Shown in pieces: positions 10,748 to 62,876 of a DNA stretch of 64,000 nucleotides (the first letter of the stretch is position 1; each line of letters begins with the position of its first letter). Source of the DNA: Rozella allomycis CSF55 (lineage: Eukaryota). A model generated the notes under the pieces. It had not been told where the DNA came from, searched no databases, and was given only the letters and a program-made list of their open reading frames with translations. A program made the position numbers and the translations under genes. The stretch is taken from the NCBI GenBank assembly GCA_000442015.1, contig KE561209.1, forward strand, positions 493,607 through 557,606, given 5' to 3'.

Positions 10748-12960
10748 CTACTAACTCCGAATCAGGAGAAACTTTACCTGGAATTGAAGTTTGAAAATGA
10801 AGACGCTCGAGAAAACTTTCATTGTGTCAGGAACTTTCTATCTCAAGTTGCACAACGTGAAGAAGCACAAGCAAGAACAACTGAGTTGAGAAAGGCATGG
10901 AAAGCAGGNGCATCCAAGTGAGATCATTACCTTCTTAAAGAACAAATATGGAAGACGAGACCTACAACTACAAAACTCGCTGCGAATGAAGATAAACAAC
11001 CTCTATCAAGAAGAGAATGAACCATTAACGGATTCCCTGAGAAGATATGATGAAGTATACAATGAATTCAAGAATGTGGGAGGTAAGGCGATGGATTATG
11101 AACTTGTGAATATGCTGAATCAAACGCTACTAACTCCGAATCAGGAGAAACTTTACCTGGAATTGAAGTTTGAAAATGAAGACGCTCGAGAAAACTTTCA
11201 TTGTGTCAGGAACTTTCTATCTCAAGTTGCACAACGTGAAGAAGCACAAGCAAGAACAACTGAGTTGAGAAAGGCATGGAAAGCAGGTCAAACAACAATG
11301 CATCAACTAGAAACCAAGGAGGAAGACGATGTAGCAATGATTACGAAACAAGTGAAGTCAATGAACTTTAGGCGACAAAGCCAAAGGACGAAGAAACGAG
11401 ATGGTACACTGGAAGATGCTACGTATGCGATGAAACAGGACATCGTAAGTTTGATTGCCCACTTTGGAAGAAACTGACTGCCAAAGAAAATGGGAAGGCG
11501 AGGCGAGAAGCCAAACCAAAGGAACAAGCCAATATGGCCGATGAAGATTCATCAAGTGATGAAAGTGAGATTGCATTAATTATGCGAGACGATGAAGAAG
11601 AAAGAACCATGATGATTATTGAAAGTGAGAATGAATATGTTGAATGGATAGTGGATTCGGGTGCGACGTCACACATGTCATCACACCGTGAATTGTTCGA
11701 GAATAACGTTGAGAAGAAAAACGCAAGAAGCGTATCAACGGCGGGAACAGAAACTATGAAAATTGAAGGATCTGGAGAAATACCACTTCGAGTTAAGAAT
11801 AGCAAGGGAGAAATAAAAGAGGTTAGGTTATACAATGTTTTACATGTTCCTTCAATGAATTCAAATTTAATGTCTATACCAAAGTTGTTGAAAAACCCTG
11901 AAATCACCGTTATAATGGAACAGGAAATGTGTAGTGTGAGAAGACGTGAGTGTGAGATCATGAGAGGTAAGCTGGAGAGACAGCTATTCACGATAAAAAC
12001 AATGAAGCGTGAGACGCGAGCGCTAAATGTAAGCGAAAAGACGAATGAAATGGACATATGGCACCGACGATTGGGACATGTGTGCGAATCATATCTGAGA
12101 CAAATGAGTAAGATTGATGTGGTGGAAGGCATACCATTGTTCAAGGAAAATAAATCACTATCGTTTTGTCACACATGTGCGAAACATAAGGCTAGAAGGG
12201 CACCATTTAAGGGAGCCCTAGTAAGAGAAATGACAATTGGCGCCAAACTACATACAGACATAATGGGACCTATGGAGAAGGAGACAATATTAACAATGAT
12301 TGATGACCACTCGAGAAAATGTTTTATTCATTTGATACCCAAGAAGTCGGACGCTAAAGACAAAGTAACGTCATTGAAACAATCAACGAGATCGAAACTC
12401 AAACTGGAGAGAAAGTAAAAGAGATAAGAAGTGATACTGGTGGAGAATATCTTGACAAGGAATTTAAGAGGGAATTAAAAAAACGGGGCATCATTCACAC
12501 CACTACAGATGCTCACACCCCAGAAATGAACCCTGTCGCCGAGAGGATGAATAGAACAATAATTGAAAAAGTGAGATGTCTATTGGAGGATGGGAACCTA
12601 CCTAAAGAATTTTGGGGTGAGATGGCGAATACTGCATGTTACATTCAAAATAGAACACCCGCTAAAATTTTGGGCGGGAAAACCCCAGAGGAAATCTACA
12701 GCGGTACAAAACCGGACGTGAGTCATATGAGAGAGATTGGAAGCGCTTGTTATGTACACATCGACACGAGCAAGAGATCCAAGTTAGACGGGAAGGCGGA
12801 GATACATTACTTGGTAGGATACGGTCATGGTCACAGAATGTTCAGAGTACGTGTCGGGAAAACGAATAAAGTGAAAAGAACAAAACATGTTAGATTTATT
12901 GATGAGAACGAGGATGAAAATGAGGATGAGACGGAAGAAGTTGAATTCGAAAGGGTTATC
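10748..12960 (+). mobile_element. Truncated, frameshifted Ty1/copia retrotransposon (gag, protease, integrase; no RT or RNase H seen)
   Basis: Zinc knuckle CYVCDETGHRKFDC, WIVDSGATSHM, WHRRLGH, HTDIMGP, IRSDTGGEY, NPVAERMNRTI; protease-integrase order; frameshifts near 11370 and 12370. Confidence 0.93.
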
Positions 12961-13779
12961 TTGAAATCATCATTCTCCCGTACCAATAACAAAATTTCCC
13001 GCACCGTCACAAAATAAATTTCAACGCACCACCGCGGAAACAAGTAATTTGCCGCATTTCTCCGTTCCATCGTCTATTTCTCCGCACCATCGTCATATTT
13101 CTCTGCAAAACCTAGAAAACGCATAAGCAATCTTGGCCACGACTCTTACCTTTATATTTTTTGGAATATGTTTCGTTGTATGTGTGCCTTATTGTGAAGT
13201 TCTAGATATTCGATTTTTTCTCATATAATATCCCTAAATGCACCATAATTTCCATTTGTTGTGCCTCCCGTCGGATTATGCAAAGAGAGAAATGCTGAAT
13301 ATTTCGTTGGTGCAAGAGACCAACTAATATATGAGCTTAAGCTGCGCAGGATGAAGCGCGAAAATGATTTAAATCTTTAGAGTGCGGTGAAAACTCGGCA
13401 GAAAGAAAGTAAAGATATAACTTAATTATAACAACTTTTTGATTGTCGATGTGGTAACACTTGTTCTGTGGGGTACATGTTGGTCATTTGCAATTGCAAA
13501 AAGTTCCATTTTTACCGTAATGTAGAACAACATGACCGTCCGATAAAATGCACCTGAAGCGTTCGCAAGATTAAAGAAGACATTGTATTGTTCGTTCAAA
13601 ACGACCCCGTTGAGTCCAACCAAAAAATATGAAAACTATGGAAATTGAAAAACAACATGGAAGAATAGGACTTTATTTAAATCACAACAAATTAGTTCCT
13701 TGAAAAAAAGAGTAAAACGCAAGGTAGGCCACATCAATCTTGTTGTGTTTTTAAAAACGAAAACAATATCAAAAATCTT

Positions 13780-26041: not shown

Positions 26042-27660
26042 TCACAGGTTTATTATTCTTGGTAATCTTTCATCCTCATGCTTATTCTTTTGAGATGGAT
26101 GGTTGTGCGCGTCGAAATCCCATACTAATAAATTCTGATCCAAGGAACTAGAAATAAGTCTTGAATTTGTAAACTTTAACTGCCAAATAGCGCTACGATG
26201 TTCATTTAAGATGTAAAGACAATTCGACTTTGAAATGTCCCATATCTTATATTTTACCTATAATGAAGTTACCCTTATAGTATGATCTAGCGAACCTGAC
26301 GCCATCTTTTTATCATCAAATTGCAAACATAATATTGCTCCCTTGTGCCCAGTGAGCGTCTTCTTGCACATTCCACTATTCTTATCCCAAACTTTGATGG
26401 AGGAATCCGCTGATCCTGTTATTATTTTGTGTGAATCGACTTGGACACAATACACATAATCAGTGTGACCTTGAAGTACTTTAATACAATTCATTTTTGA
26501 TATTGACCATATTCTAACGGTTTTATCACATGAACTAGATATTATGTTGTCGATGTCGATCTGCAAGGAGCAAACTGCCTTTTCANGCCTCCTAAAATTA
26601 ATTAAGAAATATGTTTAACCGTTTTAATCATCTAAAGTTTCTCCGTTAGCTTAAATATTTGTGGCCTTTCTGAAAACTATTGTGTCACCCACTTTTAGAT
26701 TCTCCCCACAGCCCTTTTTGGTTTTCGTGCACAAGAGTCACAAATACATGTATGGTCTTTTCCAAATGGGGAATTACTTGGATATTATGTTGTCAATGTC
26801 GATCTGCAAGGAGCAAACTGCCTTTTCATGCCCTTGTAGGATTCCAAGTAATTCCCCATTTGGAAAAGACCATACATGTATTAATCCCTCTTCATCTCCC
26901 GACAAAAGAATTTTATCATTAAATTCCAACGATATAACCTCACTATTATGTCCTATTAACGTAATAATACATTCCCCTGTATTCCGCAATAATCGAAGAC
27001 ATTACCAGTTGATTTTGACCATATTTTTATAGTCCTATCTACAGATCCAGTCACAACGTATTTATTGTTGAATTTTACTGCTGAAATAATTCCTAAATGA
27101 CCTTCTAACGTTGTTTCTGGTAGGCCCTTTTCAATGTTCCATAATCTTGCAGGAAAATTTCCTTGTATCGAGACTGCTCTTTCTGAGTCAAAGGTCATCC
27201 ATAACGCTGCATCGTTCCTATTAAACTGATTTGGCCTCATATTGCGGACAGAGTAATGTCCTGATCTCCAATTACGCTCAATCAAATAACATTTTGCAAA
27301 CACATCTCGCCAATGAATCTTATTCTTATCTCCTCTACTTGGCTTATAGTTATGAAACTTGCAAATCAATCGCCAAATTCGATCGTCATGAAACAAGGTG
27401 TACCAATTTCTACATACCGACATGGCATTGACCAAGGAATCTCCATCTAAAAATCCAAAAATTTTAGAAGATATTTCTGGTGGCAAAGAAGAAATAAAAT
27501 CTACTTTCACGTGACCATCACTTAAGTAGGATGAAATCCAAGACTTTTCTTCTTGAGTACAAGTGCTAAGGATTTTCATTAACACTTCTTTTCTTTCCTC
27601 TTCAGATGAGTTTTCAAAAAGCATTTGTACATCATAAAAGCTTAATTGAGGGTAGAACAT
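26042..27660 (-). CDS. F-box/WD40 protein (Cdc4/Met30/FBXW-like); broken by an N and foreign sequence at 26586-26780
   Basis: DFISSLPPEISSKIFGFLD F-box; multiple GH...WD repeats. Confidence 0.88.
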
Positions 27661-42323: not shown

Positions 42324-44340
42324 ATGTCAACAAATCCATTATTTTATTATTCCATACCGTTTATTGAACCACAGTCAGATTTCAATGAATGGACACAGCA
42401 TAAAATACAGGAAGGCGGAAGGTCTTTCTTTGGAAAGGTGTATTTCCAGGAAACTAGGCAGAGGCATGTGTTACCATTGACATGCATTTGGAACAAATCT
42501 CTTGAAAATCACGGATTTGTGCTTATTCCAGCTGACCGATTAAAGAAATTAGAGGAATGGGAACCGATTGCGCAATCATTAAAAAGAGTGAAGCATAGCG
42601 TAAATGGATTATGGATTGGTAGTTCTTGGTTGGATGCTCATCGCTACAAATTATTTATAGGTACGATTAAAATATACATAAATCAGGCGCAGAATCACAC
42701 AAAGGCAATGACTTATCATTTGAAGGTAAAACCATGCTGGAGAGAATGAAAAAAATGTTGGCAAAACAAAGATTATCAAACGTAACAAATGAAATTCCAT
42801 GGATTATGATGCGCTCCTCCCAATTGGTTGTCAGCAAGTAAGGCCCTATATTTTCTCAATATTGATCAATTCAACGAGCGTTTACTTCAGGTTTGACACT
42901 CAAGACATTAATGCTGAATGGTATACCTTTTAACAATCAGTCACTTGAAAATATAGCAATAGTAAAATATGGTCTGTAACATTAGAGGCTNTAATGGGAT
43001 ACCTTTCAACAATCAATCACTTGAAAATATAGCAATAGTAAAATATGGTCTGTAACATTAGAGGCTATAACTGATGCAAAACATTTGGAAGTACTTTCCT
43101 TTAGTAGAGCTGAAATCGGTGATCAGGGACTTAAAGGTAAATCTACAATTATCTTCTAAACAAGTTATCGCTTCATCAATAAAGAATTCCAACACATTGA
43201 AGTGGGTTGATTTATCTCAGTGCCAATTGACTGACTCTTCTGTGATTTATATTCATGACATACTTACAGTAATGATACGTGATCTAAATTACAGCATCAA
43301 AGTGCCATACTCCATTCCGACATGTGGAAAACCTCATTGAGGGCTGTCTATAGGGTGAACCAAAAAGAGACCAATTTAAAGCCATTGCGTAATGAAAAAG
43401 GTATTAAAAGACTGAATCTTTCTTGTAATCACTTTACTGATGAACTTTTGTCAATGCTTTTGAGTATTTTGGAGGATTCATTGGTTGTTGAAGGTATCAG
43501 GTGCAGTTTCACCCTAATAAAGCTCTTGAAGTTCAATTTAATGAATTCTCTGCAGATAAAATTCAAGAGATTCAAACTTTTCTTCTAAACAATAAGCATG
43601 ACTTGATTATGTTCGACATACGAAACAACACCGGCTACACTTTGGAAGACTACAATACTTTAAAGAAACATATTAATCCTTCCTTACCAGCAATTTTGGT
43701 AACTCTATTACCCTAATTTTATAGAGGTGGAAAGAGCTTGACCCAGAAGATCCTTTGGCTATAACTTACTGGAATGACAAGCCCATATTAAACGGAATTA
43801 AATCTGCATCAAACCCTAAACTTAAGAAGATCCCCAAAGTGAAACCTGTAGTAAAAGCAAAAGATATCGCAGGGAAGAACAAAATTATTCAATTAGCGAG
43901 GTCGCAAACTCCAAAAAAAGATACGTCACATAAAAGCAAATCAAATAGAACAAATACCTTTGAAAACAAATTAGTGGTCCGCAGTAGATTTACCAAAATA
44001 AGGGAAGATTCTCAAAGCGACGATAATTTGCCTCCTCTTCAAGATCGAATTTCAGAAATTAATGATATAAAAGTTAATTCTGCAAGCGGTTTCACAAAAG
44101 ATACGAATTTGCAAAATGTGGAGATTTTCAACGAGTTATTTGATGATTGTGTTCTGAAAAATTGTTTCAAAAAGCTTACAATTGATCGTCCAATTATAAA
44201 TGATCCTGACATTATAGATACTTTAAATCGAGGAGATGAGGGCAGTTATAAAAAGAGTTCATCATCCACTGATTACAACTTTATCACAGCTGCGATAGAG
44301 AAGTATACACTAAATAAATGCTTTACTTAGTTTACTTTAG
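42324..44340 (+). CDS. CEP78: Centrosomal LRR protein, CEP78-like
   Basis: ADRLKKLEEWEPIAQSLK, LKTLMLNGI, IGDQGLK, MWKTSLR, GIKRLNLSCN, FDIRNN follow the CEP78 motif order; ~75 bp duplicated at the N at 42992. Confidence 0.72.
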
Positions 44341-51205: not shown

Positions 51206-52159
51206 ATGAATGAGGACCCATTTTATCTAGTTTTCGAGTAATTTCGAATCGCCAAAATCATAGGGATATATCTCTTTCACTAAACCGAATAGAAAAATTA
51301 CTACAACAGGATCGATCTCTTTGGAAGTTGGATGAAATTAAGAACCAGTTGAAGACAGTAGAATTAGATATTAATGAGCTATCAGATACAATTAATATCC
51401 TTTTTGTCTGGAAAATATCTTTGATTTGAGGTTTTTCTTAACTTATCAACGGGTAGTAGAATCGAACCCCTCAAAGTTTAACATCTTGAAAACAGAAATA
51501 GAGAAAAGAAAAAAGTTGGTCCAACAAACTCTAGAGAAAATTGCAGTAAGCTCCAATATTAGTATTCATTTGAAACATAGGCAGCTGATTATGATCATAC
51601 CACCTAGCAATGCCCCATCATTGATGAGTCCGAGTGTCAGGCAGTCGCCTACTACTTTTACAAAAGATTATAGATCGGTATAATTTACACTATATCTTCT
51701 TTAGGCATTATTAAACACTAATGTACCCAAGGATCCTCTACTTAACTCTCCAACAATAAATTCGGCAGACTTCATTCAAACTCAACAACAGCAACAGCAG
51801 GTAATATGAATTACATAGACATAACAGGAAATATTAGCAAGACAAGATGACCAACTTGATGTAGTTCTCGGAGCTATTTCAACAATAAAGGATCAAGGCT
51901 ACACGATTCATACTGAATTGTCTGATCAGCAAGGGTATGCAAACACGAAATAATCAACAGGCTATTAAACAAATTAGATATTCAAGTAGACTCAACTCAA
52001 GGTAGATTGAACACGGCTATGAATCGATTGGGAAAAATATACAATGACACAACTGGTAAGTATATGTGGAACCTTTAATGAGAAAAACATTCCACTTTTT
52101 GTATTATAATTTTAATATTTATCCTGATAGCTTTGCTCTTAGCTATTATATATATTTAG
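51206..52159 (+). CDS. STX6: Syntaxin-6/Tlg1 Qc-SNARE
   Basis: MNEDPFYLV, ELSDTIRVVESNPSKFNI, QDDQLDVV...ELSDQ SNARE motif, C-terminal TM. Confidence 0.88.
51395..51450 (+). other. U12-type AT-AC intron (copy at 57095-57150)
   Basis: 5' ATATCCTTT, branch-like TTTCTTAAC, 3' AC; removal gives in-frame TIRVVESNP. Confidence 0.9.
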
Positions 52160-52160
52160 T

Positions 52161-53324
52161 TTATTTATTGTTTAATAAATTCAATCGATAATGAGACAAA
52201 CGGAGGAAGTCTTGATCTCTTATTGGGTCTGCTATCTCTGACACTTTTTCATATATATCTTTTGCAGTTTTAAGCATACCAGCATGCTAAAATAGACTTT
52301 GTAACCACATTACCTCTTCAATCATAGCCAAGTTGCACAGCACTAGCGGTTTCATTCGATCATTAGCTGCTGAGTACGCCCTTTGGCCTAAAATGCGGGC
52401 CTCTCTGAACTTTCCTAGATATGAATATGTGGCAGCCGCATTATTGTATAGTATGGGGAGTCGTGGATGATGAGGGTCTTCTTGAAGTAAAAATTCTACA
52501 GCCTTTCTATAAACACCCTAATTTTAACAAAAATCAAATTGTACCAAAGCTAAAGCATAATCGCCTTTATCTAACCAAAGTTCGCCTGCACATTCCATGA
52601 TGGCAGCCAATTGGAGCTTTTTACTGTCTGGGATCTTTAGAATGGAATATTTTTCATCCCTTCGCTTGATCTTTCTCTTGAATCTTTCCAATGTCTTTTT
52701 AGGCCACGGAAAGCTTTCTTCGTCTGGTAGTTCTAGGAGTGTCAACATTGCGTTGTTGAAACTTTCTTCGGCCTTTCCAATTTGGCGAGACGATTTATAT
52801 ACTTGACCCATCCGTTGATGAATAGCGGCTTTTTCACGCACCAGATTTTCATAATTATCATTTCTTTGATCTATCATTTTTAGGACATTTTGATAACACG
52901 ATAAAGCCTTTTCTTCATCTTTCAGTAAATATTGATAGACTTGGGCTAAATTGAGATCTATTTTTTCAGTTAGCATCTAGAAACAACATGGCTCACTTTT
53001 TACATGATTGTCGCCTTTAATTCTACTACAGAGATCTCTGGCGTGTAATAGATATTTTTCTATTTCAGAGGCATCCTTTTCATCACTATATAATGCTTTA
53101 AGCAAAGGTATCCGGACGCTAGGGGGATATTCCCAAACCAATTGGTATTGTCTATAATACATGAATGCACCCAGAGCAGATGATAAAAGCAATATATGAA
53201 AAAGTTTTCTGTAAGCGGGCTTAGAATAATTCAAAAGATTTACAGTCGTATTGTATTTACGATGGTGGTTTAATTTGTAGTATAATGGCGACAATTTCAT
53301 TACCCGGAATTGAGGGCCTGGCAT
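52161..53324 (-). CDS. TM + TPR protein, probably mitochondrial (Mgr3/TTC19-like)
   Basis: Basic N-terminus, single TM, TPR-like helices, 3 mini-introns. Confidence 0.6.
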
Positions 53325-53390
53325 TATTGAAATTTCCAAAAGGTAAATAATTCCCTTTTTAGATCCCAAAAAAGGATTAAACAAGTCAAT

Positions 53391-55375
53391 TTATTCTTTC
53401 GTGTTTCCTTGTTGCATGTTTTGAATATATTCCATAAATTCCTGCTCTGCCTGCTGAATAGCTTCAAGAATAGAATTTCCTTTCAGAAAATCATTGGGAT
53501 TCGCTGATTGCGGCTTTTTCTGAGCAGCCTTAAGCCTTTTGTCTCGAGCTGCTGTCTCTAAAGTTTTTTCTCTTTTCGTTTCACGTTCAAGCATCTAATA
53601 TTGAAGATGTTTATTCAATTACCTGTGAAAATATATTCTTCTCATCTCTTTGGATTTTTGAAAGTCCGGATGATATTTCTAATAAAGAAGTGGTACCATC
53701 TCGTGAACCAACAGCAATCATGCTCCCTCGATCTTGAATCCTTATACATTGAATGGGCGAATCACAAACCTATAAAGTCGGTATTTTCAAAGTACTTGAA
53801 TGGAAAGGGTAGGTTCAGTTTGTTTGAAAAGATAATCCCACACGTCTACTGTACCATCGTCTTTTGATGTGAAGAATACAGCAGGCCTTGTAGGAGACCA
53901 GCATCCATCTGTTAAATTATATGAGTGATAATTGGTAGACATTATTGGAGATCGAATATCTTCAGTCCAGATCTAAACTTTTTGGGGCATATTTCGCTTA
54001 CCTTAGCAGACCAATCGCCAACAGTTAAAAAGTTTCTAACAAAAAAGGGATTTCTCTTCAATTCAAAAGTCCCTTAAAAATTACCTGTAGCGCTGTAATA
54101 GGACTGTGATGACCCGGGAATGTATGCATAATCCTTTCATTCGGGTTTTTGGCCTTTCTATTGCACATGTACACAGAGCCATTCTCTGCACCAACCATAA
54201 ATTTAGTTGGCTTTTATCAATATTTTAAATTGCTTACCATTGTAGTTTCAAAATCTAGAATAGTTCCACCGACGGCAATCCCGTTCTTTTCAGGATCAAC
54301 AATCATTGCTTCAGTTGGTTCGGATAGCTTTCGAATATCCCACCAAAGAACTTGTCCATCTGTAGAAGAAGAAAAAAATTCCGCCCCTTTATTGATAAAT
54401 TTATCAGCCTTCTACCCGTTTTTGATTGGATCCACGTCACACAATATACTGGATCGCGATGACTTTTTTCTATCAGTGAAGAATCCACGGGGTATGAGCC
54501 TTTCCTTGTATCCCAAAAGGCTATTTATGAAATAAGCATAAGGTTACCTACAACTCCAGAATGTAGACCTCCAACAAGAATGTGCGGATCTTTAGGATTA
54601 TATTTGAGCGACACTACTGCAGATTCAGATAATAAAGTTTGATCAGGTGAATTTGGATTCTCGATATCCCATATATATGACTCTGTAGGCATGTCATTTG
54701 GTTGTCCTTGAAAGTCCACACATGAATAAGCGGTGGCTAGTTTGTTGCCATCTTCAGGATACCAAGACAAACACGTAGTAGACCTCTTAACTTTACTTGG
54801 ATCCCTATTTAAACCATTTTTAGTTGATACCGAAATACATTAAGTATTTTCGCTTGAGGCTTCTCCAGCGTCCAATCTTCTTCTTTCTCGACAAAATATT
54901 CTTCATAAATATCAATAGCATTGTTTTGTTTTATACACTCTTCAACAATCTATTGCTTAAATAGTAACAAATATTACCTAGTTTTGATTGAAGAATAGAA
55001 TTACATCACCTAAACTAACCACTGATCTCAAAAATTCTTCATCTTTTTCCACCTTTTTACGATATCTAATGGTATGCTCTGCATCGCTGGAATCCACATC
55101 TTTTGGCCATCCACCTTCTCGGTGCAATATACCGCGATTCGCTACTGCGTAAGACTCTGTATTGACCTTTGACATTAAAGGCATATTATTACATCATGTT
55201 CTGACATTTCCTGTGCACATTGAACTTCATGGTGGAGCGGATTTTTTATAGAATAGTTTGATAAATATGAATGATCAGGTGGGTAATCGTATAGTAAATT
55301 TGGTTCTGTCAAAGAAAAGTTAATTTGTCTCCCGAATTGACGCCTCTGTTTTTGATAAACGTACACAACTTCCAT
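53391..55375 (-). CDS. DNAI2: Axonemal dynein intermediate chain 2
   Basis: [63 protein letters not shown]. Confidence 0.93.
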
Positions 55376-55492
55376 GATTGCGTGAAATTCTAATAAACAA
55401 ACCCCGGTGTATTAAAATTACAAAATTGTTTACAGCATTGTAAATATTAGAGATTAATCATATTTAAATATAATTTATTAATGGGTTATGCA

Positions 55493-56953
55493 TTATATTT
55501 GGCCCTTAATGTCTACAATTGAAAACTCGCTAAATTTGCTCATCAGTGAAGGTAATGAACTTTTCGTATCCAATAGCTTGTAATTTTCTACTAAAATAAG
55601 ATCTAACTCTTGCAAAAACTTTAGACATTCTGAAGTGGACTCGAATGCCAATACTTTACATATGTAGCTCACGTCTATATTCGGTCGATATCTGGATGTA
55701 AAAATAACTATATAATTACGCTTTGCAGATACTAACCATTGCCTTGAACCTTTCTCTAGGCATAAAGTGATCCATTAGGTAAACACCCATATTTGGCGCC
55801 TCGTTGTACAATTGTGATAGAGAGTAATAATCGCTAATAGATATAGCTGATTTTACTTTGAGAGCGTGACTAACAGCTAAATTTTCTTTTTGAACTGGTT
55901 TTAGTTCTGCCACCAATGCGTTTATCTCTAACTTTCAAAATTGGCGCCAAATTTACCTCGCCTATTTTTTGTGTGCAGAAGATAAAGCAATCGATACGCG
56001 AGGAATTCCATGTCGTTTCCTTTGATTGAATGGATATTGTAAAGCTGTTTTAGCTGCGTTTGGCATTGGTTGTATTCACCAAGGTCTCCTTTCTCCAAAG
56101 CTATTCTCGCATGAATTTCGTAAACTTGGACAGTAAATTCGTTTTTGATTCGCTGCACCGTTAAATCTTGCCGTAGAGATTTAAACTGATCACAAATGTA
56201 CCCATAGTCACATTCTTCCCGCCATTTCTTTTTCAGAAACGCCAACGATTTCTTTAGAACGGCTAAAGGCCTGACTGTAGACGGATCGGGTGCCTTTCTA
56301 TTGTGTATTTGAGATTTACTGACGTTAACCGAAGGTATTTCTTTTCCAAATCTTGACTTGTGCCGACGATCGTGTAAATATCCCAATCAATGACTTCGTT
56401 CATCTTTTTTAATTTGACTAGAGTATTCTACTTGTTCTTTAACAGGAGCTATTCTCGAATTCCGTATTCTCATTTCATCCAATCTTTCTTGTTCGTCTTT
56501 CTGAAATCGTTTTGCCCTTTCCGCCTTTCTTTGTTCCTCTTCGTTTTGTTTTACACTAAAAGTTAAATTAAATGAATTATCTGAAAAACTCTATTAAAAG
56601 GATTTTAGATTTACTTTTTCCTTTTCTTTAGCATGTCTTGCATGGAATTAGTTTTGTTTTCCACATTTTCTATTTGATTCTTTGCTTTATTTTTATTCTT
56701 CTTTTTCTTTTTGCTTTCGTTTCGCTCTGGATATTGTCCAACATTTGGTATAGGAAAAATAGTCCAGTCCTTTAAATGTAATTCGCCGGATTTCGTTGCG
56801 TCTCCAATAATTTTCTTTAATACTTTTTCCATTTCGTCTTTTTGTTGATTAACTTTGCAGGATTCGAAGCATCTTTCCACAAATAGTCTAAAATAAAATT
56901 TGAAAGACCTCCTACTTTAAAGTGGGCGGAAATTTGGACCCAGCATTTGACTC
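55493..56953 (-). CDS. THP3: Thp3/LENG8, 5'-truncated duplicate copy
   Basis: Same sequence as 61193-62653, cut at the N. Confidence 0.8.
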
Positions 56954-57860
56954 NAAATCATAGGGATATATCTCTTTCACTAAACCGAATAGAAAAATTA
57001 CTACAACAGGATCGATCTCTTTGGAAGTTGGATGAAATTAAGAACCAGTTGAAGACAGTAGAATTAGATATTAATGAGCTATCAGATACAATTAATATCC
57101 TTTTTGTCTGGAAAATATCTTTGATTTGAGGTTTTTCTTAACTTATCAACGGGTAGTAGAATCGAACCCCTCAAAGTTTAACATCTTGAAAACAGAAATA
57201 GAGAAAAGAAAAAAGTTGGTCCAACAAACTCTAGAGAAAATTGCAGTAAGCTCCAATATTAGTATTCATTTGAAACATAGGCAGCTGATTATGATCATAC
57301 CACCTAGCAATGCCCCATCATTGATGAGTCCGAGTGTCAGGCAGTCGCCTACTACTTTTACAAAAGATTATAGATCGGTATAATTTACACTATATCTTCT
57401 TTAGGCATTATTAAACACTAATGTACCCAAGGATCCTCTACTTAACTCTCCAACAATAAATTCGGCAGACTTCATTCAAACTCAACAACAGCAACAGCAG
57501 GTAATATGAATTACATAGACATAACAGGAAATATTAGCAAGACAAGATGACCAACTTGATGTAGTTCTCGGAGCTATTTCAACAATAAAGGATCAAGGCT
57601 ACACGATTCATACTGAATTGTCTGATCAGCAAGGGTATGCAAACACGAAATAATCAACAGGCTATTAAACAAATTAGATATTCAAGTAGACTCAACTCAA
57701 GGTAGATTGAACACGGCTATGAATCGATTGGGAAAAATATACAATGACACAACTGGTAAGTATATGTGGAACCTTTAATGAGAAAAACATTCCACTTTTT
57801 GTATTATAATTTTAATATTTATCCTGATAGCTTTGCTCTTAGCTATTATATATATTTAGT

Positions 57861-59024
57861 TTATTTATTGTTTAATAAATTCAATCGATAATGAGACAAA
57901 CGGAGGAAGTCTTGATCTCTTATTGGGTCTGCTATCTCTGACACTTTTTCATATATATCTTTTGCAGTTTTAAGCATACCAGCATGCTAAAATAGACTTT
58001 GTAACCACATTACCTCTTCAATCATAGCCAAGTTGCACAGCACTAGCGGTTTCATTCGATCATTAGCTGCTGAGTACGCCCTTTGGCCTAAAATGCGGGC
58101 CTCTCTGAACTTTCCTAGATATGAATATGTGGCAGCCGCATTATTGTATAGTATGGGGAGTCGTGGATGATGAGGGTCTTCTTGAAGTAAAAATTCTACA
58201 GCCTTTCTATAAACACCCTAATTTTAACAAAAATCAAATTGTACCAAAGCTAAAGCATAATCGCCTTTATCTAACCAAAGTTCGCCTGCACATTCCATGA
58301 TGGCAGCCAATTGGAGCTTTTTACTGTCTGGGATCTTTAGAATGGAATATTTTTCATCCCTTCGCTTGATCTTTCTCTTGAATCTTTCCAATGTCTTTTT
58401 AGGCCACGGAAAGCTTTCTTCGTCTGGTAGTTCTAGGAGTGTCAACATTGCGTTGTTGAAACTTTCTTCGGCCTTTCCAATTTGGCGAGACGATTTATAT
58501 ACTTGACCCATCCGTTGATGAATAGCGGCTTTTTCACGCACCAGATTTTCATAATTATCATTTCTTTGATCTATCATTTTTAGGACATTTTGATAACACG
58601 ATAAAGCCTTTTCTTCATCTTTCAGTAAATATTGATAGACTTGGGCTAAATTGAGATCTATTTTTTCAGTTAGCATCTAGAAACAACATGGCTCACTTTT
58701 TACATGATTGTCGCCTTTAATTCTACTACAGAGATCTCTGGCGTGTAATAGATATTTTTCTATTTCAGAGGCATCCTTTTCATCACTATATAATGCTTTA
58801 AGCAAAGGTATCCGGACGCTAGGGGGATATTCCCAAACCAATTGGTATTGTCTATAATACATGAATGCACCCAGAGCAGATGATAAAAGCAATATATGAA
58901 AAAGTTTTCTGTAAGCGGGCTTAGAATAATTCAAAAGATTTACAGTCGTATTGTATTTACGATGGTGGTTTAATTTGTAGTATAATGGCGACAATTTCAT
59001 TACCCGGAATTGAGGGCCTGGCAT
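57861..59024 (-). CDS. TM + TPR protein, duplicate copy
   Basis: Same as 52161-53324. Confidence 0.55.
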
Positions 59025-59090
59025 TATTGAAATTTCCAAAAGGTAAATAATTCCCTTTTTAGATCCCAAAAAAGGATTAAACAAGTCAAT

Positions 59091-61075
59091 TTATTCTTTC
59101 GTGTTTCCTTGTTGCATGTTTTGAATATATTCCATAAATTCCTGCTCTGCCTGCTGAATAGCTTCAAGAATAGAATTTCCTTTCAGAAAATCATTGGGAT
59201 TCGCTGATTGCGGCTTTTTCTGAGCAGCCTTAAGCCTTTTGTCTCGAGCTGCTGTCTCTAAAGTTTTTTCTCTTTTCGTTTCACGTTCAAGCATCTAATA
59301 TTGAAGATGTTTATTCAATTACCTGTGAAAATATATTCTTCTCATCTCTTTGGATTTTTGAAAGTCCGGATGATATTTCTAATAAAGAAGTGGTACCATC
59401 TCGTGAACCAACAGCAATCATGCTCCCTCGATCTTGAATCCTTATACATTGAATGGGCGAATCACAAACCTATAAAGTCGGTATTTTCAAAGTACTTGAA
59501 TGGAAAGGGTAGGTTCAGTTTGTTTGAAAAGATAATCCCACACGTCTACTGTACCATCGTCTTTTGATGTGAAGAATACAGCAGGCCTTGTAGGAGACCA
59601 GCATCCATCTGTTAAATTATATGAGTGATAATTGGTAGACATTATTGGAGATCGAATATCTTCAGTCCAGATCTAAACTTTTTGGGGCATATTTCGCTTA
59701 CCTTAGCAGACCAATCGCCAACAGTTAAAAAGTTTCTAACAAAAAAGGGATTTCTCTTCAATTCAAAAGTCCCTTAAAAATTACCTGTAGCGCTGTAATA
59801 GGACTGTGATGACCCGGGAATGTATGCATAATCCTTTCATTCGGGTTTTTGGCCTTTCTATTGCACATGTACACAGAGCCATTCTCTGCACCAACCATAA
59901 ATTTAGTTGGCTTTTATCAATATTTTAAATTGCTTACCATTGTAGTTTCAAAATCTAGAATAGTTCCACCGACGGCAATCCCGTTCTTTTCAGGATCAAC
60001 AATCATTGCTTCAGTTGGTTCGGATAGCTTTCGAATATCCCACCAAAGAACTTGTCCATCTGTAGAAGAAGAAAAAAATTCCGCCCCTTTATTGATAAAT
60101 TTATCAGCCTTCTACCCGTTTTTGATTGGATCCACGTCACACAATATACTGGATCGCGATGACTTTTTTCTATCAGTGAAGAATCCACGGGGTATGAGCC
60201 TTTCCTTGTATCCCAAAAGGCTATTTATGAAATAAGCATAAGGTTACCTACAACTCCAGAATGTAGACCTCCAACAAGAATGTGCGGATCTTTAGGATTA
60301 TATTTGAGCGACACTACTGCAGATTCAGATAATAAAGTTTGATCAGGTGAATTTGGATTCTCGATATCCCATATATATGACTCTGTAGGCATGTCATTTG
60401 GTTGTCCTTGAAAGTCCACACATGAATAAGCGGTGGCTAGTTTGTTGCCATCTTCAGGATACCAAGACAAACACGTAGTAGACCTCTTAACTTTACTTGG
60501 ATCCCTATTTAAACCATTTTTAGTTGATACCGAAATACATTAAGTATTTTCGCTTGAGGCTTCTCCAGCGTCCAATCTTCTTCTTTCTCGACAAAATATT
60601 CTTCATAAATATCAATAGCATTGTTTTGTTTTATACACTCTTCAACAATCTATTGCTTAAATAGTAACAAATATTACCTAGTTTTGATTGAAGAATAGAA
60701 TTACATCACCTAAACTAACCACTGATCTCAAAAATTCTTCATCTTTTTCCACCTTTTTACGATATCTAATGGTATGCTCTGCATCGCTGGAATCCACATC
60801 TTTTGGCCATCCACCTTCTCGGTGCAATATACCGCGATTCGCTACTGCGTAAGACTCTGTATTGACCTTTGACATTAAAGGCATATTATTACATCATGTT
60901 CTGACATTTCCTGTGCACATTGAACTTCATGGTGGAGCGGATTTTTTATAGAATAGTTTGATAAATATGAATGATCAGGTGGGTAATCGTATAGTAAATT
61001 TGGTTCTGTCAAAGAAAAGTTAATTTGTCTCCCGAATTGACGCCTCTGTTTTTGATAAACGTACACAACTTCCAT
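59091..61075 (-). CDS. DNAI2: Axonemal dynein intermediate chain 2, duplicate copy
   Basis: Same as 53391-55375. Confidence 0.85.
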
Positions 61076-61192
61076 GATTGCGTGAAATTCTAATAAACAA
61101 ACCCCGGTGTATTAAAATTACAAAATTGTTTACAGCATTGTAAATATTAGAGATTAATCATATTTAAATATAATTTATTAATGGGTTATGCA

Positions 61193-62876
61193 TTATATTT
61201 GGCCCTTAATGTCTACAATTGAAAACTCGCTAAATTTGCTCATCAGTGAAGGTAATGAACTTTTCGTATCCAATAGCTTGTAATTTTCTACTAAAATAAG
61301 ATCTAACTCTTGCAAAAACTTTAGACATTCTGAAGTGGACTCGAATGCCAATACTTTACATATGTAGCTCACGTCTATATTCGGTCGATATCTGGATGTA
61401 AAAATAACTATATAATTACGCTTTGCAGATACTAACCATTGCCTTGAACCTTTCTCTAGGCATAAAGTGATCCATTAGGTAAACACCCATATTTGGCGCC
61501 TCGTTGTACAATTGTGATAGAGAGTAATAATCGCTAATAGATATAGCTGATTTTACTTTGAGAGCGTGACTAACAGCTAAATTTTCTTTTTGAACTGGTT
61601 TTAGTTCTGCCACCAATGCGTTTATCTCTAACTTTCAAAATTGGCGCCAAATTTACCTCGCCTATTTTTTGTGTGCAGAAGATAAAGCAATCGATACGCG
61701 AGGAATTCCATGTCGTTTCCTTTGATTGAATGGATATTGTAAAGCTGTTTTAGCTGCGTTTGGCATTGGTTGTATTCACCAAGGTCTCCTTTCTCCAAAG
61801 CTATTCTCGCATGAATTTCGTAAACTTGGACAGTAAATTCGTTTTTGATTCGCTGCACCGTTAAATCTTGCCGTAGAGATTTAAACTGATCACAAATGTA
61901 CCCATAGTCACATTCTTCCCGCCATTTCTTTTTCAGAAACGCCAACGATTTCTTTAGAACGGCTAAAGGCCTGACTGTAGACGGATCGGGTGCCTTTCTA
62001 TTGTGTATTTGAGATTTACTGACGTTAACCGAAGGTATTTCTTTTCCAAATCTTGACTTGTGCCGACGATCGTGTAAATATCCCAATCAATGACTTCGTT
62101 CATCTTTTTTAATTTGACTAGAGTATTCTACTTGTTCTTTAACAGGAGCTATTCTCGAATTCCGTATTCTCATTTCATCCAATCTTTCTTGTTCGTCTTT
62201 CTGAAATCGTTTTGCCCTTTCCGCCTTTCTTTGTTCCTCTTCGTTTTGTTTTACACTAAAAGTTAAATTAAATGAATTATCTGAAAAACTCTATTAAAAG
62301 GATTTTAGATTTACTTTTTCCTTTTCTTTAGCATGTCTTGCATGGAATTAGTTTTGTTTTCCACATTTTCTATTTGATTCTTTGCTTTATTTTTATTCTT
62401 CTTTTTCTTTTTGCTTTCGTTTCGCTCTGGATATTGTCCAACATTTGGTATAGGAAAAATAGTCCAGTCCTTTAAATGTAATTCGCCGGATTTCGTTGCG
62501 TCTCCAATAATTTTCTTTAATACTTTTTCCATTTCGTCTTTTTGTTGATTAACTTTGCAGGATTCGAAGCATCTTTCCACAAATAGTCTAAAATAAAATT
62601 TGAAAGACCTCCTACTTTAAAGTGGGCGGAAATTTGGACCCAGCATTTGACTCTTTCGAAGCGCTTTTTCCACTATTTTTTTAAATATACACCGCATTAC
62701 GGTTTTGTAGCTTCTGAGTATGATTTACCAGCGGGTGCAGATTTTGATGAAATCAGGCCATTATTATGCCCTGGAGTTGGTATCGGCGCAGGAATATTGT
62801 AATTTGATGTTATTGTATTAGGCCTGACAGCTTTTGGAAGCGGTGGTGGTGCATAACTATACTGAAACGGTTTCAT
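61193..62876 (-). CDS. THP3: SAC3/GANP-domain protein Thp3/LENG8, complete copy
   Basis: [74 protein letters not shown]. Confidence 0.92.

Follow-up and report, generated by a model that had tools for sequence, protein, structure and literature searches.

A back-to-back pair of mini-introns around a zero-length exon in Rozella allomycis DNAI2: a candidate substrate for recursive splicing

The second interruption of the DNAI2 gene of Rozella allomycis CSF55 consists of two well-formed mini-introns in tandem, separated by an exon of zero length, and judged from its sequence it is plausibly a candidate substrate for recursive splicing. R. allomycis, a flagellated endoparasite, branches near the base of the fungi, with the microsporidia as its sister group. 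The interruption is 55 nt long and lies in a 64-kb stretch of the genome, which was analyzed as a whole and is hereafter called the window. Our assessment is evenly balanced on whether the 55 nt are removed in two steps with use of the inner splice sites. The two-step proposal is weighed below against removal of the 55 nt as a single intron, against an obligatory length limit of the spliceosome, and against an artefact of assembly or gene modelling.

DNAI2 and the anatomy of its 55-nt interruption

The DNAI2 model (Table 1) is 58-66% identical to nine homologues (P0001-P0009), which are mostly from zoosporic fungi, and with five of them the alignment extends over 551-560 residues. The similarity to known DNAI2 proteins is thus full-length and colinear. 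The human DNAI2 chain 8j07_m2 is matched by one 85-aa exon with an E-value of 2.7e-27. As the exons contain no in-frame TAA or TAG, the standard code fits, and a ciliate code for DNAI2 was rejected. Nine of the interruptions are 26-29 nt long, and the second alone measures 55 nt. Elsewhere in the window, the plus strand at 10890-13017 has long open reading frames that encode a zinc knuckle, a Pol beta-barrel and a GAG-pre-integrase domain, i.e., a Ty1/copia-like retroelement. Nowhere in the window is the GC content higher (0.39).

Two public R. allomycis CSF55 proteins match the DNAI2 model, one of 516 aa that is identical wherever aligned and one of 475 aa with 99% identity. This match speaks against a dicyemid or other animal origin, which had been considered in view of the PDB matches and of published intron sizes. 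The public models (P0010 and P0011) are without 44 and 85 of the 560 residues, and the missing parts are conserved sequence around tiny introns. One model misses VFRDPSKVK and a 35-aa WD40 stretch, and the other misses more. Apparently, the 26-29-nt introns were mishandled by gene prediction, and the annotation of R. allomycis would benefit from an intron model tuned to this length.

Table 1. Coordinates of DNAI2, its interruptions and related features in the window (position 1 is the first nucleotide of the window; slashes mark splice junctions).
Feature	Position	Strand	Remarks
DNAI2 (axonemal outer-arm dynein intermediate chain 2, IC2, WD40)	53392..55375	minus	560 aa, standard code, ten interruptions
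DNAI2 interruption 1	55192-55167	minus	26 nt
DNAI2 exon 2	55005..55166	minus	54 aa
DNAI2 interruption 2	55004-54950	minus	55 nt (27 + 28)
Unit 1, 27-nt mini-intron	54978..55004	minus	GTAATT...AACTAG, phase 0
Junction TAG/GTAA, zero-length exon, ratchet-point-like	54977..54978	minus	3' and 5' splice sites juxtaposed
Unit 2, 28-nt mini-intron	54950..54977	minus	GTAATA...CAATAG
DNAI2 exon 3	54831..54949	minus	protein ends ...NVFR
DNAI2 interruption 3	54830-54805	minus	26 nt
DNAI2 interruption 4	54547-54521	minus	27 nt
DNAI2 interruption 5	54415-54387	minus	29 nt
DNAI2 interruption 6	54237-54211	minus	27 nt
DNAI2 interruption 7	54084-54056	minus	29 nt
DNAI2 interruption 8	54001-53973	minus	29 nt
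DNAI2 interruption 9	53795-53770	minus	26 nt
DNAI2 interruption 10	53622-53595	minus	28 nt
Identical second copy of the 55-nt element	60650..60704	minus	inside duplicate 56955-62653
27-nt intron with inner TAG/GTAA	26272-26246	minus	F-box/WD40 gene
27-nt intron with inner TAG/GTAA	40753-40727	minus	enoyl-CoA hydratase-like gene

Read on the minus strand, the 55-nt element and its flanks are ggtgat/GTAATTCTATTCTTCAATCAAAACTAG/GTAATATTTGTTACTATTTAAGCAATAG/attgtt. As the preliminary description of this DNA had stated, the interruption consists of two complete mini-introns of 27 and 28 nt that enclose a zero-length exon, and both have a GTAAT donor and a TAG acceptor. The description had also called both units modal in length with a typical donor and acceptor, and this agrees with the intron census of the window, in which 27 and 28 nt are the commonest length classes (16/75 and 22/75 introns, respectively). 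Its statement that neither half is a copy of the other holds as well, since their identity of 0.41 equals the mean of random intron pairs (0.41, sd 0.09).

In-frame stops are present in both halves, and the only one in unit 1 is its own terminal TAG. Among candidate introns that start with GTA and are 18-39 or 50-59 nt long, only removal of the whole 55 nt lets the reading frame pass the stop at 54980. The protein then reads ...SLGD/IVEEC... across the junction. This junction is gap-free against seven of the eight homologues that span both sides (P0001-P0003 and P0006-P0009), and the colinearity with DNAI2 that had been claimed for the removal of both units is thereby confirmed. In P0004 there is a 6-residue gap just upstream of the junction, and P0005 begins after it. 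The two public gene models, whose proteins are nearly identical to this one and which are predictions and not RNA, also read SLGDIVEEC.

Several other explanations of the element were considered and rejected. A lost or hidden micro-exon does not fit, as seven of the eight homologues show no missing residue at the junction. Apart from this one, the smallest internal exons measure 54 nt (in the manual model) and 74 nt, and the zero length is therefore not the tail of a micro-exon series. No other copy of either half was found within the window at up to 3 mismatches, the second duplicate copy aside, which argues against a mobile or repeated intron unit. The predicted RNA fold of the 55 nt has an energy of -4.1 kcal/mol (z -0.63), and 54 of 200 shuffled sequences fold equally well. 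As no stem joins the outer sites, a hairpin that shortens the 55 nt is not supported.

The identical second copy of the element belongs to an exact head-to-tail duplicate of 5.7 kb, in which 51255-56953 equals 56955-62653 with zero mismatches and the joint is a single N at 56954. The duplicate contains DNAI2, a SAC3/PCI-like gene and a third gene. The repeat of the 55-nt interruption noted in the preliminary description is thus real, but it does not count as an independent second case because it lies within this duplicate. Of the 12 Ns in the window, the three that were examined all flank duplications. Around the N at 26586 (26540-26850), about 50 nt of an F-box/WD40 exon are repeated after an inverted stretch, and around the N at 42991 (42838-43107) a unit of about 90 nt is repeated in tandem. 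Since the Ns at 26586 and 42991 also adjoin duplicated or inverted segments, the single Ns look like unmerged joins, and the 5.7-kb duplicate may therefore be an assembly product, probably an unmerged contig overlap. The public source carries two locus tags for the identical DNAI2 protein, which fits a duplicate that is also present in a public assembly.

The case could also be an artefact, i.e., an assembly error could have made the 55 nt or the duplicate, or the gene model could be wrong and part of the 55 nt coding. In favour of this are the artefact-like joins at the single Ns at 56954, 26586 and 42991, with their exact or near-exact duplicates. However, some 2 kb separate the 55-nt element from the nearest N, and its two copies are identical. 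A coding role is contradicted by the in-frame stops in both halves, by the absence of extra junction residues in seven of eight homologues, and by the public gene models (predictions) that arrive at the same SLGDIVEEC. An artefact of either kind is therefore very improbable.

Intron lengths, splice-site quality and chance

The intron census covers the 64-kb window only and was made with a generalised hidden Markov gene model, which was run both with a flat length prior and with a length prior. With the flat prior, 87 of 140 predicted introns are 26-29 nt long. A further 36 of the 140 are at least 35 nt, but this number is unreliable, as long introns are over-predicted. Three of the long calls were checked (27005, 54237 and 56614); two of them are false, and the one at 56614 remains a candidate. 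The 53-nt intron called at 27005 is really 29 nt long, and the 84-nt and 18-nt introns called in DNAI2 conflict with homology. With the length prior, all genes are explained by 72 introns of 25-33 nt. After manual additions in DNAI2, the window has 75 introns besides the two halves, all of 25-33 nt with a mode of 28 nt, and 98% of these predicted introns start with GTA, with TAG as the preferred end. Taken as one piece, the 55 nt fall outside this range, as none of the 75 others exceeds 33 nt in the model with the length prior.

The R. allomycis introns in the window are ultra-short, as in Paramecium or Dicyema. According to the introduction of a survey of such introns, lengths below about 30 nt are exceptional and occur in ciliates, microsporidia and dicyemids; Rozella is not named in that introduction (PMC13644364).

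In the neighbouring SAC3/PCI-like gene, the stretch 56614-56556 on the minus strand can be read in two ways: as a 26-nt intron whose acceptor is weak and after which 33 nt of AT-rich sequence are coding, or as a candidate one-piece intron of 59 nt. The acceptor of the 59-nt candidate scores 4.1, versus 1.0 for the 26-nt alternative, and the candidate has no central AG/GT. If real, it argues against a strict length limit.

Splice sites were scored with matrices trained without the sites of the 55-nt element. Unit 1 has a donor score of 4.4 and an acceptor score of 5.8, and its sum of 10.2 exceeds that of 56 of 74 real introns. Unit 2 has a stronger donor (6.4) and a weaker acceptor (2.8), and its sum of 9.1 exceeds that of 35 of 74; the quartiles of the real-intron sums are 7.1, 9.3 (median) and 10.2. 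Among 2057 non-annotated GT..AG pairs of 25-31 nt, only 6 reach the score of unit 1 and 18 that of unit 2. Each half thus has what marks an ordinary mini-intron in this window, i.e., GTA...AG ends, a length of 25-33 nt and scores within the real distribution.

When the AG/GT sites on both strands of the non-duplicated window are ranked by the lower of their acceptor and donor scores, the inner junction (acceptor 5.8, donor 6.4) ranks first of 301. The element is the sole tandem pair in the non-duplicated window in which both units score at least 9.0, and a tandem pair of such quality appeared in 2 of 300 Markov-simulated windows, which makes the structure statistically unusual. The gene model with the flat prior parsed the 55 nt as two introns unprompted.

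A fairer null, however, starts from a genuine intron of 55 nt that has an inner site by chance. Internal AG/GT is found in 4 of the 75 ordinary introns of the window, corresponding to 4 of 1489 internal sites, and at this rate roughly 0.5-2% of 55-nt introns should have a central AG/GT by chance. If there were a few hundred introns of 50-60 nt in a genome, chance would thus account for a few such cases. Given this chance rate, and given that the case was picked for its look and is subject to selection bias, a single locus cannot decide the matter.

Two ordinary 27-nt introns of the window, one of them outside the 75, also have an inner TAG/GTAA (Table 1). Both have the form GTAA-N8-TAG/GTAA-N5-AAG, i.e., 15 + 12 nt with the inner site at +15. 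An inner site at this place cannot define a second intron. These introns may be due to chance, or they may be a trace of how such introns arise.

The word TTAA is present in 31 of the 75 intron cores, versus 11.4 expected, at a median of 11 nt from the 3' end. Unit 2 carries TTTAAG 12-10 nt from its 3' end, which is the usual place of TTAA/TTTA words, and unit 1 is without such a word. One-step excision via a branch site in unit 2 is feasible on account of this word.

Removal in two steps or in one, and the age of the intron position

The two-step proposal assumes that, where introns are almost all 26-29 nt long, a donor most likely pairs with an acceptor some 27 nt away across the intron (intron definition), and that each unit would then most likely be recognised and excised separately. 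With such pairing, and with a normal donor and acceptor at modal spacing in both halves, separate removal would be the natural expectation. The 5' unit would probably be removed first, as it emerges from the polymerase. Its removal would leave GGTGAT/GTAATA, i.e., an intact donor for unit 2 that abuts the upstream exon. The reverse order would likewise leave intact sites, and either order would give the same mRNA as excision of the 55 nt in one step. A half-spliced RNA would carry an in-frame stop. A metatranscriptome run gave only pieces of 36-42 nt with low likeness that are attributable to chance, contained no joints, and says nothing on expression or splicing.

The position of the interruption is ancient. 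It lies after DNAI2 residue 115 in phase 0, and introns occupy the same place in the loci L001, L002, L003 and L021-L025. The best of 40 metagenome loci, L001, is 61-65% identical over two matched stretches, and at 506-560 it carries, at the corresponding place in DNAI2, an intron that likewise measures exactly 55 nt, without a central AG/GT; its other introns are about 45 nt long. L001 also shares the DNAI2 intron positions after residues 154, 275 and 325 and is without those after residues 61 and 240. No close relatives of the locus were found in the genome-contig and viral-contig collections. In two distant DNAI2 loci that are 30-50% identical (L026 and L031), the gaps between matched segments are 22 and 28 nt, which indicates another organism with tiny introns.

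The plain 55-nt intron in L001 fits an ancestral intron of ordinary fungal size, and it also favours the reading in which the R. allomycis element is a single ordinary intron left over from the ancestral length. The 55 nt would then be removed in one step from 55004 to 54950 with a branch site in the 3' half, and the inner TAG/GTAA would be fortuitous and little used. The TTTAA word found only in unit 2 is consistent with this, as is the candidate 59-nt intron without a central AG/GT in the neighbouring gene. With a central AG/GT expected in 0.5-2% of 55-nt introns, about a hundred such introns would yield a few cases. In Encephalitozoon cuniculi, a related microsporidian, a 76-nt intron is reported to be better spliced than the miniature introns (PMC6349667), which also speaks for splicing in one piece. 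On the other hand, the inner sites are more than just present: they form the top-ranking dual site among 301 and divide the element into halves of exactly the two commonest intron lengths, and 0/75 other predicted introns of the window exceed 33 nt. Under intron-definition pairing, moreover, a good acceptor 27 nt past a good donor would be hard to ignore. One-step removal is thus a serious possibility, to which we give somewhat less than an even chance.

The preliminary description had proposed a length-limited spliceosome that works in two steps. In its strong form, a stricter version of two-step removal, the spliceosome could not span more than about 33 nt. Removal in two steps would then be obligatory, and double-length introns would be systematically tandem. 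We know of no spliceosome with such an upper length limit. The narrow length distribution, with 87 of 140 flat-prior introns at 26-29 nt and all 72 length-prior introns at 25-33 nt, is what this limit would produce, and the one longer interruption that homology confirms forms a perfect pair. However, the 59-nt candidate at 56614-56556 has the better acceptor (4.1 versus 1.0) and no central AG/GT, the internal AG/GT in 4 of 75 ordinary introns implies a central site by chance in 0.5-2%, and the E. cuniculi intron shows that a long intron can be spliced well in a related microsporidian (PMC6349667). An obligatory limit is therefore unlikely.

As to origin, the sequences suggest that probably either an ancestral intron of about 55 nt gained an inner AG/GT, or a second intron was inserted at the adjacent AG/G. 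A broader hypothesis builds on the first of these routes: the splicing machinery would measure about 27 nt, and those ancestral introns of ordinary fungal size (about 55 nt) that escaped shortening by deletion would have become chains of complete mini-introns by gaining inner AG/GT sites. Double-length introns would then be systematically tandem and recursively spliced. We consider this hypothesis rather doubtful.

Relation to known recursive splicing and to ultra-short introns

Ratchet points are known from Drosophila Ubx, from about 200 sites in flies and from long genes of vertebrates. Recursion via a zero-nucleotide exon is described as established in Drosophila (10.1101/006163), and the fly and vertebrate cases are reported from kilobase host introns and tied to the processing of long introns (10.1101/006163; PMC6110456). 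Like a ratchet point, the DNAI2 element has juxtaposed sites, with AG/GTAA inside what would be annotated as one intron; the donor would abut the upstream exon after step one, and the final mRNA would be the same. Unlike the fly and vertebrate ratchet points, the element totals 55 nt and not kilobases, its halves are normal full introns, and either order of removal would be workable.

Another described case is in a fungus with short introns. In BOT1 of Cryptococcus neoformans, a 375-nt intron is reported to consist of 210 + 165 nt around a zero-nucleotide 'pivot point' (10.1101/224170). The view of the preliminary description that recursive AG/GT sites are known mainly from very long animal introns is therefore too narrow, as this 375-nt intron is also recursive (10.1101/224170). 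The two cases differ in that BOT1 is reported as proven by spliceosome-bound junctions, branches and 3' ends, whereas the DNAI2 pair is known from sequence alone. They also differ in length, as the BOT1 halves are given as about three times the usual intron of that organism, whereas the DNAI2 halves are exactly modal.

Stwintrons of filamentous fungi are described as complex intervening sequences that are removed by consecutive standard splicing reactions (PMC5639578, PMC8469720). As described there, an inner intron interrupts the donor, the branch element or the acceptor of an outer intron, and the order of removal is obligatory. The DNAI2 element is not of this type, as its two complete units are adjacent and neither the outer donor GTAATT nor the outer acceptor AATAG is interrupted.

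Ultra-short introns are reported from Paramecium and Nyctotherus (about 25 nt), Dicyema (median 27 nt) and myxobolids (22-27 nt), and Encephalitozoon has miniature introns (PMC5014332, PMC6543705, PMC13644364, PMC6349667). As far as these reports describe them, such genomes resemble the window in their narrow length mode below 30 nt, their reduced signals and their GTA...AG introns. Full-text searches, which covered the main text of openly accessible papers, found none that connects ultra-short introns to tandem or recursive units. According to a 2026 survey, the recognition of ultra-short introns needs further study (PMC13644364).

The DNAI2 element bears on the question of how intron length is set where introns are ultra-short, and a tandem pair at an ancient intron position offers a simple natural test. 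If only one-step removal occurs, the spliceosome is not limited by length, and the narrow range of lengths would have to be due to biased mutation or to selection for size. If, however, the inner sites serve in splicing and double-length introns are enriched for them, the pairing of splice sites works over a fixed short distance. In that case, recursive splicing would be a general way to handle introns that are 'too long', beyond those of kilobase size. Should the machinery indeed measure about 27 nt and ancestral introns have been converted into chains, this would represent a second evolutionary route to intron miniaturisation, and the upper length limit of a minimal spliceosome could be read from it.
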